A stretch of 32,000 nt of DNA from an uncultured archaeon (GCA_964354495.1 CAYHAA010000011.1:30001-62000); one strand, 5' to 3'. Counted from the stretch's first letter, positions 5,398-15,444 are shown. Made by a program: numbers and translations. The notes: generated from the sequence alone by a model not told the origin.

Positions 5398-5973
5398 TCA
5401 TGTTGTCATAGACTGGCCGAAAGGCTTCCTGAGAAGATTTCCAAGTCCAAAACCGACCAGAAGGTAGAAACCATAGAAGGTCAGACCAAATCCTTCAGCG
5501 GTTGGCTTTCCCAGTATTCCTGTGAGAAATGGCAGAGCTTTTTCGATATTGAAAGGCAAGACTGCGACAATCCCGCCTTGAAAGATCGCCCCCAGAATTG
5601 TGAAGGCCAATATGAACGGGATATAGAAATAGCACATTGGCTTCATTCTAGCGCTCATCATTGAACTATTGATACGCATGATTCTGCCCTGATCACTAGC
5701 CAATTCTTGGAGCGCTACTGGATCCTTGCTTTTCCTTGCAGCTTTCAACTTATCCTGCCATACCTTCACCTCTGCCATGTCTTGCTTCATCTTCTCGACA
5801 TCGGTGAACTTGTTCGTGGCCCAAATAGACATCAGTGCAAGTCCAACATTGACGAGGACGACAAGAATGGCTGACCACGGAGGAGTTGCCATTGGCTGGA
5901 AAAGATTGGCGACAAATTGCAGGAAATCGCTCCATGGATCCATTTCTGAAACACTCAAACTGCTGAACAACAC
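5398..5973 (-). CDS. DUF106 / EMC3-TMCO1 family (Oxa1 superfamily) membrane insertase-like protein
   Basis: TM1, then a cytosolic coiled coil (DVEKMKQDMAEVKVWQDKLKAARK), then MKPM-x3-IPF TM2 and a C-terminal TM with Y-x-L and LLRKPFG. The real start may be the ATG at 5943. Confidence 0.88.
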   Translation of the reverse strand: MLFSSLSVSEMDPWSDFLQFVANLFQPMATPPWSAILVVLVNVGLALMSIWATNKFTDVEKMKQDMAEVKVWQDKLKAARKSKDPVALQELASDQGRIMRINSSMMSARMKPMCYFYIPFILAFTILGAIFQGGIVAVLPFNIEKALPFLTGILGKPTAEGFGLTFYGFYLLVGFGLGNLLRKPFGQSMTT

Positions 5974-6043
5974 GGTGCCATTTTAAAGTTATAGCTTGGG
6001 GGAGAACTCACTCTACACAGAATTGTACTGCATTTGAGAGGAA

Positions 6044-6468
6044 CGTGTACTTTCTTGAATTGATGAATCGTTCTATCCCTGTTTAATTCACCTTGGTTTC
6101 TGATGGAAGAAGTCGTTGCACTAATACAGCCATTCGTCCCGCTTCGTCCATGCTATTGAACCTGCAAGTGAGTACACGCAGCATCTCAAAGAATGTACAC
6201 GTTAGCCTCTGCGAATCATTTCACTGAATACTCGAAATGTACACGTCGATGCATTTCGCGCGCTTTGGAAGCTGATGGAAGCTAATAATATGTCAAGATA
6301 GCTCTAATGTTCTATCTTTGGCATAGAACGTGCATGTTTGTTCTCAAATCACATCACAGATGTTACATTTGTTCCGTCATCATACTCAATCATACTCAAA
6401 TGTGTGGCGCGAAATAGCGGCGTTTACCAGTCAAAACCGTATATGTTTATATTATGGTAAGCGTGTAC
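6044..6468. repeat. Cluster of five GTACACGY motifs
   Basis: GTACACG on + at 6172, 6195 and 6239; on - at 6044-6050 and 6462-6468. Confidence 0.75.
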
Positions 6469-6493
6469 TCTCCCTGTCTGACCGCCGGGAGGT
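6446..6493 (+). promoter_or_regulatory. TATA box and Shine-Dalgarno of the 88-aa ORF
   Basis: TTTATATT at 6446-6453 and GGGAGGT at 6487-6493. Confidence 0.6.
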
Positions 6494-6505
6494 AAAGACA
6501 CTTTG

Positions 6506-6772
6506 ATGATGTTCAGCAGAATGCTCAGAAGACAGGGTTTCTATCGTGTTAAGAACCAGGAAGAGCCTGTTTACATGAAACATGGTGTTGGCCTGGGAGG
6601 AATATATGTACGAATCTGTGAGAAGAAAGCTTTGGTACAGGTTCGTGATCTTGGTATTCAAGAAGAGTTCACAAAGGTCAAGAAGCTTGAGAATTTTATC
6701 AACAATCTCGATGACCAAGCCTATCGCGAAAAGTGTTTCATTGTCCACCGAATGCGCGGGTCAGGATCATAA
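6506..6772 (+). CDS. Small basic hypothetical protein (about 88 aa)
   Basis: Has its own TATA box and SD. Alpha/beta-like sequence GFYRVK...VYMKHGVGLGGIYVRI. Start could be TTG 6503, ATG 6506 or ATG 6509. Confidence 0.8.
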   Translation: MMFSRMLRRQGFYRVKNQEEPVYMKHGVGLGGIYVRICEKKALVQVRDLGIQEEFTKVKKLENFINNLDDQAYREKCFIVHRMRGSGS

Positions 6773-6886
6773 GTTCATCTCTCTTTTCTCTATCCCGAGG
6801 TATGGCGGGCATACAATGTGCTCGCCTACCTCTTCATTATTGAGTTACATTGAAATACGACTCTCTAATTTTGGTTGTGAAGTTGC

Positions 6887-8239
6887 TTGAAAGACATAGT
6901 CAGTGGCATACAGAAAGCAATAGTTGAGAGGAATTTTCCTGCAAGCAGTCATCTTCTCGACCATGCGAGAAAGAACAACCAGATTGCTGATGTTGCGAAA
7001 CTGCTTGAGGTTGACTATGACCCGTATCCACAGCACACGCTCGAGCTAAGAGACCATGTCACCTATTACCTAGGAATGTGGGACGTGTACTTTGCAGTAC
7101 AAATATCATCGACCAATATGCTTAGACTGTTGACGGATCATGTTGAGGGCGACGTTCAAGTATTCATGATTGATTTTGTAAAATGGCTTCTTGATCAGAG
7201 GGATTCCCGGTTCAATCAGTTCTATGCTTCCGTTGAGATCATTAGCAAAGGGCACTATGCTGTCGTGTTGCCCCAGATTCTCACTCTAAGGTCCGAAGAA
7301 CTCGAGAACTGTATTATCTACTACAAACGCGGGTCCGTCCCCCTCTGCTGCACTGTCAATCTACTGCAGACCTACTATGGCCAGAAGATCGTTTCCGCAA
7401 TATCGAATGATGAAATCTTTGAAAGTGTGGTCAGTGAGAAGACCTTTGGCATCATCGCAGAGAGCCTGCAAAGTGCAGGACTGGATGTTTCAAAAATGCT
7501 TGTGGGCGTCGATTCAGCGGAGTGGGAGGATATCGTATGCAAAGTGGGCAAAATCGAGTCACACAATGAGGACGCCAAAGAACTGAGAACTCTCCATAGG
7601 GTGCATGCTGCTCGGTCTGAGATTTTCCTTGACAGCTTCAGAAAACAGGCTGCAGCGTTGGATACTATTCTCAATGCCAAGACTCAACTATGCAATGATG
7701 TATTGATGATGGTTGCCTCCGATGATGGGCACGATATGCGTCTGCGCGCGTTGAAGGGTTTGGGCGATAATGGGGATTCCAATACCTTAGAGTTTCTGTC
7801 AGGTATGTTGAATGATGGAGAGCCAGCAGTTCGCAATGTTGTCGCCAGAGCCATATCCACCCTTGCATCTCATAGCAAATGGTCTAGCATTGGTCACAAG
7901 ATTCCTCAGAGCAAACTCAAAGCACCGAGTCTGGATATATCAAAGATAAACCGAATCCTAACCACCCTGGTAGCCAAAGGGATGCCCATCGCGATGATCG
8001 AAGACACCTTGATAGCAGTGGCAACACAGGGTGGCAGAAATGCTGTAGATATTCTCACGCGGCTTCTTGCAAAACCTGACGTCAGTATCAAGAAGGCTGT
8101 CATCAAGTCCTCGAGGCTACTGGAACGTGATGCTGCTGCTTCGATAATCCGGACGGCTCTTGATGATGAATCACCAGAGATTGTAACAATGGCAGAGGAA
8201 GAGCTGAACTCTCGATGGTCCGACGAGGTCTGGAAATGA
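6887..8239 (+). CDS. HEAT-repeat (PBS lyase-type) domain protein
   Basis: C-terminal repeats MRLRALKGLG, VRNVVARAIS, IKKAVIKS and DDESPEIVTMAEEEL. The N-terminal ~280 aa are unassigned. TTG start. Confidence 0.82.
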   Translation: MKDIVSGIQKAIVERNFPASSHLLDHARKNNQIADVAKLLEVDYDPYPQHTLELRDHVTYYLGMWDVYFAVQISSTNMLRLLTDHVEGDVQVFMIDFVKWLLDQRDSRFNQFYASVEIISKGHYAVVLPQILTLRSEELENCIIYYKRGSVPLCCTVNLLQTYYGQKIVSAISNDEIFESVVSEKTFGIIAESLQSAGLDVSKMLVGVDSAEWEDIVCKVGKIESHNEDAKELRTLHRVHAARSEIFLDSFRKQAAALDTILNAKTQLCNDVLMMVASDDGHDMRLRALKGLGDNGDSNTLEFLSGMLNDGEPAVRNVVARAISTLASHSKWSSIGHKIPQSKLKAPSLDISKINRILTTLVAKGMPIAMIEDTLIAVATQGGRNAVDILTRLLAKPDVSIKKAVIKSSRLLERDAAASIIRTALDDESPEIVTMAEEELNSRWSDEVWK

Positions 8240-8267
8240 GTATTGAGGATTTTCCATCAGTCGGAAC

Positions 8268-9458
8268 CTACACGAACTTCGATCTTATGTAACGAGGCGC
8301 GGCTTTGAGGATGGCATTTCTGACTGACCTCTTCCCGACCAACATCTCTGCGATTATTCGTGATGTTTCTTTGGACATGAGAAAACCTGAGCCCATGGAT
8401 TTCGAACCTGAATCAGTGAATTTCCTCTGGAGATAGAGACCCCATTTCAAATCTGAACCCATGGAATCTATCCACACTCTTTCATATTGCGATAACGCAG
8501 CATCAGAGAAGTCATTCTTCTTGATACATGCCGCAGCTGTCTTGGCTGCTTCGCGACCCCCAACCATTGCATAGAATATTCCTTCACCGCTCAGAGGTGA
8601 ACACTGACAAGCTGCATCACCTGCAAGGAGAATTCTTCTACCATATGAAGGTCGAATGACTCCTGCAAGAGGCATCAGGGCGGCCTCTCTCCTGATCAGT
8701 TCTGCTCCATCGAGATCAGTTCTAGTTGGTTCCACCTCCGATATCAGGTGTCTGAGGTAGTCGTCTATTCGTGCATTGTTCCCACGAACTCGGTCGATGA
8801 GTCCACCGCTTCCAACGACAGATATCTTCCCGCATGGAAACACCCATGCATAGCCGCGTGGAGAGTACTCATGTCCATAGTAGAAATCATTCACTTTCTG
8901 AAACTCAGTGTCGCGTTTCAAGTGGTACTGGATTGCATAGCCTAGATGCGAATTCGATGGTCTCTCCCTTAGGGGGACAAACCTTTGAGTTACTGGATTC
9001 ACGCCGCTTCCATCAATAATAAGATGAGATGTCAGCTTTTCAGAATCCGAGCCATACGAAAGAGTCACACTGCACCCTGACTCGGATACCTTGACGTTAC
9101 TAATCTTTGTCGCTAAACGAATGTCACCATGCTTCTTGTCAATCCTTCTAATCAAGCAGTCAGCAAGATCCTCTCTTCTAACATTGACTCCTACTACATC
9201 ATCAAAGTCGACTCGAGTGACATCTAGTCCAGGGAACTTCATACGTAAGGATACTATTTCATACTGACTCTTGATATGTTCCACTTCAAATTCCTTGAGT
9301 GCCCGAGAAGGAATGAAACCTCCACAAGCTTTCTTCTCTCCGGGTTTCTCATTTCGATCAAAGAGTGTGTACCGCACGCCCAACTCAGATAAGGTGACAG
9401 CTGCGATGAGACCAGCTGGTCCTGCACCAATAATGATTACATCGGTATCCTCAGACAT
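8268..9458 (-). CDS. Geranylgeranyl reductase family FAD oxidoreductase (DGGR-like, archaeal lipid saturation)
   Basis: IIGAGPAG dinucleotide motif, ACGG, YAWVFP (YxWxFP) and LLAGDAA-x4-PLSGEGI. Confidence 0.92.
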   Translation of the reverse strand: MSEDTDVIIIGAGPAGLIAAVTLSELGVRYTLFDRNEKPGEKKACGGFIPSRALKEFEVEHIKSQYEIVSLRMKFPGLDVTRVDFDDVVGVNVRREDLADCLIRRIDKKHGDIRLATKISNVKVSESGCSVTLSYGSDSEKLTSHLIIDGSGVNPVTQRFVPLRERPSNSHLGYAIQYHLKRDTEFQKVNDFYYGHEYSPRGYAWVFPCGKISVVGSGGLIDRVRGNNARIDDYLRHLISEVEPTRTDLDGAELIRREAALMPLAGVIRPSYGRRILLAGDAACQCSPLSGEGIFYAMVGGREAAKTAAACIKKNDFSDAALSQYERVWIDSMGSDLKWGLYLQRKFTDSGSKSMGSGFLMSKETSRIIAEMLVGKRSVRNAILKAAPRYIRSKFV

Positions 9459-9557
9459 GTTGCATACCAGAGCATAGCGGCTTCCCTATTAATTTTGGCT
9501 CATCTCATTGAGCGGCATAATTGATGTGGAGCTCGATGCAACGATGGGAAGAAGGAG

Positions 9558-9684
9558 CGTGTACCGTTCATTGGCAATCATGCTCGCTGATTTGCTTTGA
9601 TGCGGTTTTAGTTTGCTTCTCTTGGTTGGTACACGCTTGTTGTCTTCTTGCCAAAGAGTACACGTCTGCCCGATGGAGTACACG
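9558..9684. repeat. Cluster of four GTACACGY motifs
   Basis: On - at 9558-9564; on + at 9629, 9658 and 9678. One-mismatch copies at 9816 and 10462. Confidence 0.75.
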
Positions 9685-10690
9685 TGTAGGAAGGAGAGAG
9701 GAAGGAAAGGAGGAGTATGCTAAGATTCACTCTTGAAATCCATTGTTGGCCCGATCTCGTACTCTTGGATTCAGAACGCAGCTGTTCCTTCGAGCGTTTA
9801 CTTCATAGTATGTACGTACACCTTAGTATATCCGACCTTGTAATACCCTAAATCGAGTATGGCAACCCAGTATGAACGCAGTTTGGCGGCACCCTATTTG
9901 GCTCACCTACGATGCAACTGTACCAATACTTCGTCTGTCCCCTTCCTGGGTCTTGCAAGCGATCCTTGCTTGAGTTCACTTGTCCTATCTAGCCTATCTA
10001 GCCAGCACGTGCACTTACACTGCAAGAACACTGGAGTTATTCTGCATTCGAGTTTGACTCAGCAGAATCCTCTTTGATCTCTTTTAGGCCCTTTAGGTTC
10101 AGATTCTAGAATTCACCATTGTTATTTATTCTTCTATCCCATCACTCAATACCCGTCGCTTTTTCGACAGTCAATATATAATCGGTGTCTATATTTATCG
10201 ACGTCCGTAATAGGTATGGGATGCCGTTACATGGAACACAATGTACCATCACACGGCATTTACAGCTATTCTAAAACAAGAGTGTATGTCGTGTTGAACC
10301 GTCTTTTCCAGGAAATCTCTGCTTGTCTTGTGACTTACGGATCGTGGTATCATACGCGTTTTGCTGCTAGTGATTCTTGTCATACCCAGAAAGTGAGTCA
10401 TACTATCTGTGCACCGGAAAAGCTAGTGAAGAAGCAGGGTTATCCACGCGAAAAGGTAGCAGTACACACTATTTGAGTATGGTAGTTGCCCTTTGAATGA
10501 TTGCTGTCTAGTACCCGTACTCGAATAGCGAATACAGCTTATTGTGTCACTTTTCAGTGATTTTGTATGTATAGTAGTAGTATTCCTGAGGATGGAAGGT
10601 TCCATTGATTGACAATGAGGCTTGCAAGAAGAGAAGTAGTTGTGAACTGCCGCTACATATGTACTATTATGTTATATGATGGGGCAAGAT

Positions 10691-10708
10691 AGTATTATAT
10701 ATAATACT
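10691..10708. promoter_or_regulatory. Perfect 18-bp palindrome in an AT-rich tract
   Basis: AGTATTATATATAATACT equals its own reverse complement. Bases 10661-10740 are about 76% A+T (hand count). Confidence 0.55.
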
Positions 10709-10847
10709 TGTAAAACTAAAAATACAATAGCAGTAACAATCCTCACCTAATGTGTATTGACGAAAACTCGAAAGGTAACTGGGAATGTAACATAGAGAAC
10801 AGCAATTGATGATTCGTGCATTCATAGCGGGTGCCACCATCTGATGG

Positions 10848-11015
10848 ATGATTGAGCCCCGAGACCTCTCTCGACTCGGTTGGCTTTGCGAAGTGTGCCT
10901 TGATCTAGCTAACTTGGCAGAATCGTTCCATCAGGAGCACAGGACAAATGAACAGCAGGAATACAGACCTCGCCTTGGCATAATCATGCCTTCTAACGTG
11001 AAATTCCTTCAGTGA
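10848..11015 (+). CDS. Possible small protein, 55 aa, single CxxC
   Basis: Below the track cutoff: MIEPRDLSRLGWLCEVCLDLANLAESFHQEHRTNEQQEYRPRLGIIMPSNVKFLQ. No clear SD. Confidence 0.3.
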   Translation: MIEPRDLSRLGWLCEVCLDLANLAESFHQEHRTNEQQEYRPRLGIIMPSNVKFLQ

Positions 11016-11173
11016 TTAGAGCCTAGTCACACATCATTTATATCCATAGGTAAGGAATTGATTGGACAGATACAGTAACAGGTCTGTGCGCTCCTTTCGT
11101 GCAAGTTCGAATAAGTACTTCTCGTTCGTGCATGCGCTGGAATGCTGCATCCGAAGAAACAAGAGGCTAGCCA

Positions 11174-11536
11174 ATGGCGACGATCTTCATTGTCGATGAT
11201 GAAGTCATACTACATCGATTGTACAAAGATGTTTTTAGCATCAAAGGACATGAGGTCATCGCGGATGCTTACGATGGCGCAGAAGCCGTAGAGAAGTTCA
11301 TCGCTCTCCGTCGTAAGCCTGATGTTATCATTCTAGACCATAGAATGCCAAACAAAGATGGGATGCAGACGATGAAGGAAATACTGGCAGTAGAGGCCAA
11401 TGCAAAGATTGTATTCATCAGTGCTGATGCGAATGTACGAGAGCAGGCAATGAGCAATGGTGCAGTAAGTTTCGGATTGAAACCCGTTACGATTCGGCAC
11501 ATGCTAGACCTCGTTGAAAGCGCTGTATCTGAATAA
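11174..11536 (+). CDS. Single-domain response regulator (CheY-like receiver)
   Basis: IFIVDDE acidic pair, phosphoacceptor in IILDHRMP, conserved S (FISA) and K (LKP). No output domain. Confidence 0.95.
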   Translation: MATIFIVDDEVILHRLYKDVFSIKGHEVIADAYDGAEAVEKFIALRRKPDVIILDHRMPNKDGMQTMKEILAVEANAKIVFISADANVREQAMSNGAVSFGLKPVTIRHMLDLVESAVSE

Positions 11537-14669: not shown

Positions 14670-15395
14670 CTACTCAGGGTCCAGGACAATTTCGTCATCT
14701 TCTTCAGAACCATTGGATTCCTCTTCTGATGAGGTCCGAGCGTCAAGCGATGCAAATAGCTTCTCAAAGAGTATCAGAGCTTGTTTTACGGTGGACGCCC
14801 ATACATCCGGCTGATCTTCATCGATGGTTGTAGCTGTGTCTCTTACGGGATCGAGAAGTGTTCTGACCTCCTGACAGCTCTCTTCGCTCCAGGAACACTG
14901 ACTCATGACCGCTTCGATTTGCTTGATAATCTGTCCTCTCACAGATGCGAAGCGCATTCGTTCATCGTCAAGGTCCGCAAGGCGTTTGTTGACTTTTCCC
15001 AGTTCATTAAGAAGACGACGCACAGCAGCAACATCTTGTCGAGCTTCTGGAATGACGAATTCCTTCGGAACAATAGTCCCGCTGGATGAACGTGTAATGA
15101 GACGAACCACAAACGCATTAGGCAGAATTGTCGTTGATAATCCGAATCTTGCATTCAACCGATAGTACACTCTATCTGGGCCAAGGTCGCTTTCTCCTGA
15201 CTGCCTCTCTATTAGTCCTGCCTCTTGGAGTGCTTCTAGGTGTTTAATTACCCCTCGTGGAGTGAAACCCAGGGTCTTGCTCAACTCATAGGGATATCTC
15301 TGCCCTTGAGCAAGAAGTCGAAGAATCCTCCTTCTTGTATCGCTGCTCAGAGCTCTGAACATTCTATCCAGTTCATTTGGACCTTCTTGTGACAT
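14670..15395 (-). CDS. ArsR-family winged-helix transcription regulator with a C-terminal coiled coil (COG1777-like)
   Basis: FRALSSDTRRRILRLL...ELSKTLG...KHLEALQEAGLI...RVYY. Start placed at ATG 15395 behind GGGGT; the track starts at 15410. Confidence 0.9.
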   Translation of the reverse strand: MSQEGPNELDRMFRALSSDTRRRILRLLAQGQRYPYELSKTLGFTPRGVIKHLEALQEAGLIERQSGESDLGPDRVYYRLNARFGLSTTILPNAFVVRLITRSSSGTIVPKEFVIPEARQDVAAVRRLLNELGKVNKRLADLDDERMRFASVRGQIIKQIEAVMSQCSWSEESCQEVRTLLDPVRDTATTIDEDQPDVWASTVKQALILFEKLFASLDARTSSEEESNGSEEDDEIVLDPE

Positions 15396-15444
15396 GATAT
15401 ACCCCTTCATTCTGGATCCATGGCTTCAGAACTCATTTTCAAGT

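Follow-up and report, generated by a model that had tools for sequence, protein, structure and literature searches.

Arrays of a non-palindromic 8-bp word upstream of an 88-aa protein gene and a geranylgeranyl reductase gene in Thorarchaeota: a conserved, predicted operator system with a candidate winged-helix regulator

Two clusters of GTACACGY in a Thorarchaeota contig

The window analyzed here, by which we mean the whole 32,000-nt stretch G000:C11:30001-62000 of the Thorarchaeota metagenome-assembled genome G000 (3.30 Mb, 47.7% G+C), harbors two intergenic regions in which the 8-bp word GTACACGY is clustered. The first is the 529-bp spacer between the gene of an 88-amino acid (88-aa) protein and a divergent DUF106/EMC3-like gene; the second (cluster 2) is located directly upstream of a geranylgeranyl reductase (GGR) family gene, and a HEAT-repeat gene lies between the two clusters. 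The word occurs ten times in the window, against 0.55 copies expected and a maximum of three copies in 100 dinucleotide-preserving shuffles. The initial annotation had listed nine intergenic copies and one coding copy (7083-7090), all of which we found on the strands given and with a C or T after GTACACG; the starts of the minus-strand copies, however, were off by one position once the Y is counted. GTACACG is present 173 times in the 3.30 Mb of the genome, and the genome-wide count confirmed that groups of at least four copies exist only in the two regions of this window, apart from one on contig C20, where four copies form a looser group over 1.2 kb.

Alignments of the orthologous regions revealed that the fourth base of the word varies, the sites being described by GTA[A/C/t]ACG[C/T], with the Y retained in 99% of the sites and T favored at the next base. 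Hence, the word proposed earlier is real, but its degeneracy had been missed, so two further sites, at 6420-6427 and 9794-9801, were overlooked. We counted 191 copies of GTAHACGY in G000 versus 651 of the reversed control word, and we attribute this rarity to the general depletion of ACGT (0.48 of expectation), GTAC (0.70), TA and CG in this genome. Thirty of the GTAHACGY copies are intergenic, 11 of which fall in the two regions of the window; outside these regions, its density is equal in intergenic and coding DNA (~55 per Mb). The 529-bp spacer alone contains six sites of the degenerate word, against ~0.03 expected at the genome density. The spacings of 20, 23 and 44 bp reported for the clusters were confirmed as well, and spacings of ~23, 44, 29, 41 and 70-71 bp recur in relatives.

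Conservation of the sites in orthologous loci

Using the 88-aa protein, we recruited 37 Thorarchaeota loci (65-99% identity), 33 of which, from many genera, have enough upstream DNA for per-site counts; the alignments took in 34 and 21 loci. In the alignment conservation profiles the sites stand out as near-invariant peaks, both in place and in orientation, while their flanks are poorly conserved. The features of the 88-aa region are listed below, with distances given relative to the start codon of the 88-aa gene.

6043..6050, minus strand: site A, GTACACGT, ~70 bp upstream of the divergent DUF106/EMC3-like gene, ~-460, in 23/33 loci
6172..6179, plus strand: site B of the distal array, GTACACGC, ~-330, in 21/33 loci
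6195..6202, plus strand: site C of the distal array, GTACACGT, 23 bp past site B, ~-307, in 23/33 loci
6239..6246, plus strand: site D of the distal array, GTACACGT, 44 bp past site C, -263, in 33/33 loci
6420..6427, minus strand: site E, reading GCGTTTAC on the plus strand, 18 bp upstream of the TATA box, -82, in 32/33 loci
6446..6453, plus strand: putative TATA box of the 88-aa gene, TTTATATT, invariant in the alignment
6461..6468, minus strand: site F, reading GCGTGTAC on the plus strand, 7 bp downstream of the TATA box, -41, in 33/33 loci
6503..6772, plus strand: 88-aa protein gene, the presumed main regulated gene
7083..7090, minus strand: coding copy within the HEAT-repeat gene, found otherwise only in the closest relative and probably a chance copy

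At the position of site A many orthologs read GTATACG. The spacing between sites E and F, 41 bp here, is 40-41 bp in all 32 loci that carry both. Site F is the copy that had been singled out as repressor-like for lying between the 88-aa start and its TATA box, and every one of the 33 loci has kept it.

The second region contains the following features.

8268..9458, minus strand: GGR family gene (TIGR02032), with cluster 2 always directly upstream
9517..9523, plus strand: decayed proximal GGR site, reading ATAATTG in this window
9557..9564, minus strand: cluster 2 site, GTACACGC, ~99 bp upstream of the GGR start
9629..9636, plus strand: cluster 2 site, GTACACGC, ~71 bp from the 9557-9564 site, with which it forms an inverted pair of conserved spacing
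9658..9665, plus strand: cluster 2 site, GTACACGT, 29 bp past the 9629 site, spacing conserved
9678..9685, plus strand: cluster 2 site, GTACACGT, 20 bp past the 9658 site, less conserved, nearly a palindrome (GTACACGTGTAC)
9794..9801, minus strand: site of a third promoter, reading GCGTTTAC on the plus strand, 21 bp before the TATA-like TTAGTATAT (9823-9831)
9823..9848, plus strand: rightward promoter core, consisting of the TATA-like box and CCTTGTAATA (9836-9845), highly conserved

Most orthologs beyond the closest relatives of this genome carry GTAAACG at the position equivalent to 9517-9523, that is, CGTTTAC when read towards the GGR gene, 12-17 bp upstream of a TATA-like box at ~9484-9498; this proximal site has decayed in the window and in its close relatives alike. 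Across genera, cluster 2 begins with a site on the plus strand; a minus-strand site follows after 41 bp, a second plus-strand site after 70-71 bp, and further plus-strand sites after 29 bp and sometimes another 20 bp. The cluster lies immediately upstream of the GGR gene at every locus examined. This includes L070, in which the GGR gene sits 4.5 kb away on the other side of the 88-aa gene and cluster 2 has moved along with it. Since cluster 2 tracks the moved GGR gene, and since the HEAT-repeat gene is absent from four loci, the clusters belong to two promoter regions. They do bracket the 88-aa, HEAT and GGR genes, as had been stated, but the unit is these two promoter regions and not the gene block.

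The arrays have a narrow phylogenetic range, being present in family f1 and partly in its sister family f2, while none was found upstream of the 88-aa homolog in f7, f8, f9, f12, f15, f21, f24 or f26. Of the 86 family genomes, 69 contain the word in direct-repeat pairs, typically 2-5 in each, compared with 0-1 pairs of the reversed control word in most family genomes; outside the family, such pairs are at the control level. In genus g15 (G342 and G343; L129-L132 and L138), the word forms a cassette, cACGTGTACTAG-N9-CTAGTACACGTATG-N10-AGTACACGT, the first two sites of which make up an 11-bp perfect inverted repeat, with a direct copy at 20-21 bp. This cassette is found at a minimum of five further intergenic places with unrelated neighboring genes and flanks, which argues for a trans-acting binder and not for a mobile repeat. 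We considered a mobile repeat resembling miniature inverted-repeat transposable elements (MITE) or repetitive extragenic palindromes (REP) and rejected it, as nothing but the three sites and a handful of neighboring bases can be aligned among the g15 cassettes.

The rightward promoter and the ferredoxin-domain gene

In at least five relatives, the rightward core precedes a gene whose 370-aa product carries a 2x[4Fe-4S] ferredoxin domain at its C terminus; this gene is divergent from the GGR-family gene. A tblastn search found no remnant of it in the window, and its sole relative is a 32%-identical paralog on contig C37. The segment 9850-11170, which sits where several relatives carry the 370-aa gene, is gene-poor, as the absence of the ferredoxin-domain gene would explain; the ~1.3 kb beyond the rightward core shows 78% identity to the closest relative, versus ~90% protein identity in the flanking genes. 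Pairing of GGR genes with ferredoxin-type neighbors is also described for other archaea; in the case of Methanosarcina acetivorans, GGR requires this neighbor as its reductant (PMC10821996).

Two loci, L047 and L052, contain the conserved word TTGGnCCTTGTAATA twice, in L047 on both sides of an inserted gene, which hints at insertion or replacement events at exactly the place of the 9850-11170 segment. We also considered a 72-aa open reading frame (ORF) at 9859-10077 with a weak HTH_66 match, and rejected it as a gene, since even the closest relative does not conserve its start codon.

Promoter geometry suggests operators around TATA boxes

The sites close to promoters fall into two types of arrangement. 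In type 1, RCGTTTAC, read with transcription, is located 13-23 bp upstream of a TATA-like box. Four promoters show it: that of the GGR gene (in most orthologs beyond the closest relatives), that of the 88-aa gene, the one on the ferredoxin side of cluster 2 (9794-9801) and that of a TraB/PrgY/GumN-family gene elsewhere in the genome. In type 2, a TATA box is followed after 7-9 bp by GCGTKTAC, before the expected transcription start, an arrangement that exists at the 88-aa gene and at the gene of a 114-aa winged-helix protein (next section). Distal sites face the proximal one from 41, 81, ~120-170 or ~180-230 bp away. In the 88-aa promoter, site E has an activator-like position just upstream of the putative B recognition element (BRE) and TATA box, and site F a repressor-like position between the putative TATA box and the expected transcription start.

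An archaeal factor bound just upstream of the BRE/TATA can help recruit the TATA-binding protein (TBP) and transcription factor B (TFB), a factor that occupies the DNA from the TATA box to the start keeps the polymerase from being recruited, and one and the same factor can activate or repress according to its position. Type 1 sites would be placed where archaeal activators act, a protein bound at type 2 sites would block RNA polymerase recruitment, and distal sites would probably contribute cooperativity or looping. Of the two arrays, which have five to six sites each, the first would control both the 88-aa gene and the DUF106/EMC3-like gene divergent from it, and the second a divergent pair, namely, the GGR-like gene and, ancestrally, the ferredoxin-domain gene. 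Among the readings offered in the initial annotation, that of a multi-site regulator is strongly supported by the conserved place and orientation of the sites and by their fixed TATA distances; binding and the sign of regulation are predictions.

A 114-aa winged-helix protein is the leading candidate for the binder

The only other conserved multi-site locus that we found in G000 is C1:89457-89544, in the control region of the following gene.

G000:C1:89580-89921: 114-aa MarR/PadR-like winged-helix gene (P0056), whose control region carries the word

The pair of sites at this locus is 81 bp apart in 30/30 orthologous loci, and is also present in most other genera examined. Its proximal site lies 7-9 bp past a conserved T-rich box (GGTTTTTCA) and ~35 bp before the start codon, i.e., in a type 2 position, as expected for autoregulation; its distal site is the perfect palindrome GTAAACGTTTAC in many genomes, although most sites overall are single non-palindromic words. 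The AlphaFold model of the protein (pLDDT, the predicted local distance difference test, 89.5) has the topology H-H-H-H-beta-beta-long H, that is, a winged helix-turn-helix followed by a 30-residue C-terminal helix, and its top 50 Foldseek matches are almost all winged-helix regulators (LmrR/PadR, MarR and YodB), the best being LmrR (prob 0.96, E 0.013). A homodimer prediction scored 0.28, compared with a mark of 0.42, which speaks neither for nor against a dimer.

Orthologs of the 114-aa protein are encoded in 80 of the 85 f1 genomes (16/16 genera) and in the single genome of f2, while f7 and f21 harbor only weak relatives, f5 yielded one marginal match, and none of the 135 f9 genomes contains an ortholog. 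Thus, the range of clear orthologs (f1 and f2) matches that of the motif arrays. In addition, the predicted recognition helix SKQSITNAARRLEE is nearly invariant, paralleling the invariance of the word. Because of this matching range, the near-invariant recognition helix and the presence of the word in its own promoter, we rank the 114-aa protein first as the putative binder; the evidence is circumstantial and gives it a roughly even chance. The local binders named earlier (the ArsR, 88-aa and 113-aa proteins) fit less well than this gene on another contig. A 119-aa ORF beside the TraB-like gene was discarded, being an antisense shadow of the 114-aa winged-helix gene.

Overall, we consider it probable that the arrays are operators of a sequence-specific transcription factor confined to the Thorarchaeaceae and their sister family, the 114-aa protein most likely being an autoregulator with a dual role, which would activate or repress depending on the position of its sites. 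We infer the identity of the binder, and likewise the nature of its signal, which may be related to membrane or redox state because the targets are the GGR and ferredoxin genes.

Several points weigh against this interpretation. The TATA boxes and transcription starts are predictions made from the sequence only, and the winged-helix gene could be a mere target of another factor. A look through the sequencing runs yielded no RNA run for 5900-11200. The similarity of the 114-aa protein to MarR_2 in Pfam (E 2.9e-5, 24.6 bits) is below the cut-off of 27, with MarR itself at E 3.1e-4, and the E-values of the Foldseek matches are weak. Furthermore, dimeric binding to palindromes is usual among MarR and PadR proteins, whereas the sites found here are mostly non-palindromic words that stand singly and can have either orientation. 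Genera g18, g20, g21 and g24 and one g15 genome lack the exact word where it would be expected, and no site exists within 2 kb of the f2 ortholog of the 114-aa gene. Finally, the location of two g15 cassettes between convergent genes would be unusual for a promoter operator.

The 88-aa protein and its upstream region

The 88-aa protein is basic (17 K+R versus 10 D+E) and has a mean identity of 87% across the family. Its homologs, all annotated as hypothetical, are encoded in 237 of 400 Asgard genomes, which include, by their record names, members of the Thor, Hel, Hod and Baldr lineages. We found neither a Pfam or NCBIfam match, nor a sequence relative in the PDB, nor a Foldseek match for it, and its Atlas feature matches are all below 0.85. 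The model of the protein (pLDDT 80) is an alpha-beta-alpha sandwich, for which a wide structural search placed the C-terminal domain of the Mediator subunit Med17 first, with borderline scores (Z 8.2 and 7.3), followed by an immunity protein, frataxins, more Med17 chains, T4 MotA and secretion chaperones; according to the calibration of the search itself, such Z levels can come from a common fold arrangement. An identity as HicA was rejected, as the weak matches in two of 34 members (E 0.013) were judged to be noise.

Other conserved blocks in the spacer of the 88-aa gene include TTTCGCGC and an inverted copy, GCGCGAAA, ~150 bp apart (6254-6261 and 6407-6414), and GGAAGCT and ATTTGTKC, each present twice (6267-6283 and 6334-6372). 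Words of the GGCGC[GC] type (E2F-like TTTSGCGC) are also found upstream of the 88-aa homolog in f2, f7, f8 and f15. These words show no genome-wide enrichment. The 5' leader of the gene (6475-6501) contains an invariant GCCGGGAGG at 6484-6492, which includes the ribosome-binding GGAGG and is flanked by TGTC...GACA; these flanks could pair, with possible compensatory changes in relatives, and the leader may form a small hairpin hiding the ribosome-binding site. In f9 (L105-L107, L120 and L139-L158), the 88-aa homolog likewise has a strongly conserved upstream region of ~300 bp, which uses other repeated words (ATATTAC/GTAATAT and CGATGRYCAT). It seems that the 88-aa gene generally comes with an elaborate control region.

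Alternative explanations

If the sites are operators, the protein bound to them might differ from the 114-aa candidate. One possibility is that the 88-aa protein itself binds them as an autoregulator: its control region holds the largest array, with six sites in most genomes, and regulator genes often carry the strongest cluster; moreover, the protein is small, basic and extremely conserved, and its model weakly matches the DNA-binding C-terminal domain of T4 MotA (Z ~5.3). However, the 88-aa family is Asgard-wide, far wider than the motif, which is absent upstream of its homologs outside f1 and f2, making it a weaker candidate, and we could recognize no DNA-binding family or fold in it, its fold matches being generic. 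We therefore regard binding by the 88-aa protein as improbable. Somewhat less doubtful, though still unlikely, is that the operators serve another factor, such as the ArsR-type protein encoded at 14670-15410, a receiver/TPR partner or some other regulator. The ArsR-type winged-helix gene is only 5 kb from cluster 2, and receiver-TPR genes adjoin the GGR/88-aa locus in several genera despite rearrangements; yet in G349 a distance of 65 kb separates the ArsR and TPR genes from the 88-aa gene, in G342 they are found on a different contig, and no cluster of sites was seen at the ArsR gene, the link to the motif being proximity in some genomes only. A more far-reaching version of the winged-helix reading, to which we give little credence, would make that factor, with looped 8-mer arrays, a master switch that couples the 88-aa protein to lipid-saturation genes (GGR and its ferredoxin partner), with the 88-aa protein, whose best structural matches are the C-terminal domain of Med17, acting as a transcription or signaling co-factor important across the Asgard archaea instead of a mere target.

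The arrays might instead have nothing to do with promoters. The sites are short words that recur on both strands, and nowhere on the contig is the G+C lower than in the 1.7-kb gene-poor stretch beside them (0.434). They could be iterons or serve in origin recognition or partition, at a replication origin or a centromere; the initial annotation had suggested an iteron-like replication or partition element. Nevertheless, both Orc1/Cdc6 genes (with Cdc6_C matches) are on contig C6, and the gene-poor stretch is not conserved, occupying the place of the ferredoxin-domain gene of relatives. The GC skew along contig C11 was uninformative, as it shows no turning point beyond the noise, and the DNA between inverted sites is not markedly AT-rich. 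Iterons are tandem direct repeats of 17-22 bp beside a Rep gene; here, only the 8-bp core is conserved, with differing flanks between copies, and no Rep-like gene exists in the window. The arrays track individual promoters, with fixed TATA distances at separate ones and with cluster 2 following the moved GGR gene, and we consider a replication or partition function highly improbable. The same annotation raised a methylation-sensitive site with a GTAC core, that is, a restriction-modification or methylation target, with which the under-representation of GTAC and ACGT and the C5 cytosine methylase gene adjoining one of the g15 cassettes would agree. But the 8-mers are not depleted beyond their sub-words (45 seen versus 40, and 33 versus 38, under maximal-order Markov expectation), the variable fourth base removes the GTAC core from about half of the sites, and a modification target would not keep conserved TATA distances; to this explanation we attach the least weight of all. 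An Rfam search returned no family match anywhere in the window.

The word and conserved blocks at other loci

A lone GCGTTTAC upstream of Snf7, in the Vps4-Snf7 spacer (G000 C1:71674), was considered as a link to the endosomal sorting complex required for transport (ESCRT) and rejected as a chance copy, as it was found in 0/20 orthologous loci. The Snf7 (ESCRT-III) gene has a strongly conserved promoter block of its own, CTGCGAAGGTTTAAACG, across the Thorarchaeaceae (L206-L235; C1:71628-71780), which lies 17-18 kb away from the winged-helix/TraB-like locus, a distance conserved in several genomes. The spacer between a beta-lactamase-like gene and a TFB (TFIIB) paralog in the complete genome G349 contains a cluster of five GTAHACG sites (G349:C1:1470830-1471390; L125), which reaches into the called TFB ORF at its 5' end; the G000 ortholog of this TFB (87% identity) has no intergenic GTAHACGY copy upstream.

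Discussion

The kind of system described here, in which an autoregulated winged-helix regulator would act through operators around TATA boxes, is familiar and entails no new principle. SurR and TrmBL1 of the Thermococcales are position-dependent dual regulators of archaea, and they likewise share one word among several promoters, either upstream of the BRE/TATA or downstream of the TATA box. However, they belong to other winged-helix subfamilies and recognize palindromes (GTTn3AAC and TATCAC-N5-GTGATA), whereas the word found here is a non-palindromic 8-mer in arrays of five to six copies, with activation and repression predicted from sequence. The 114-aa candidate resembles the short PadR/LmrR type in combining a winged helix-turn-helix with one long C-terminal helix, and autoregulated MarR/PadR genes in having the word in its own promoter. 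Unlike the MarR, PadR and LmrR proteins, which act as dimers on inverted repeats, usually at one or two operators beside their own gene, it would serve arrays on distant promoters, and its similarity to MarR is below the Pfam cut-off. Multi-site autoregulation is known from Ss-LrpB of the Sulfolobales, where several regularly spaced sites share one control region, as they do here, and allow concentration-dependent regulation and possibly bending or looping, but Ss-LrpB has an Lrp fold and 15-bp palindromic, AT-rich boxes, and nothing at our loci resembles Lrp/AsnC. As for the targets, several Thorarchaeota have a GGR gene and a divergent 4Fe-4S gene, similar to the pairing in Methanosarcina acetivorans and other archaea (PMC10821996); a regulatory array between the two genes is not known to have been described, and this window differs further in the missing ferredoxin-domain gene.

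Taken together, the arrays are a real, conserved and lineage-specific predicted operator system with a specific candidate regulator. To our knowledge, no Asgard transcription factor has been experimentally paired with its DNA word, and a non-systematic literature search found no study that makes such a pairing. Nearly all Asgard organisms are uncultured. Our analysis provides a concrete candidate pair: a word whose sites are mapped at five promoters, and a 114-aa protein amenable to recombinant production. It also provides a small predicted regulon, in which the Asgard-wide 88-aa protein is joined by a TraB-like gene and by the GGR-family reductase and its partner of the ferredoxin type. If true, this pairing would open the promoter-level study of Thorarchaeota and would offer a way to approach what the 88-aa family does.

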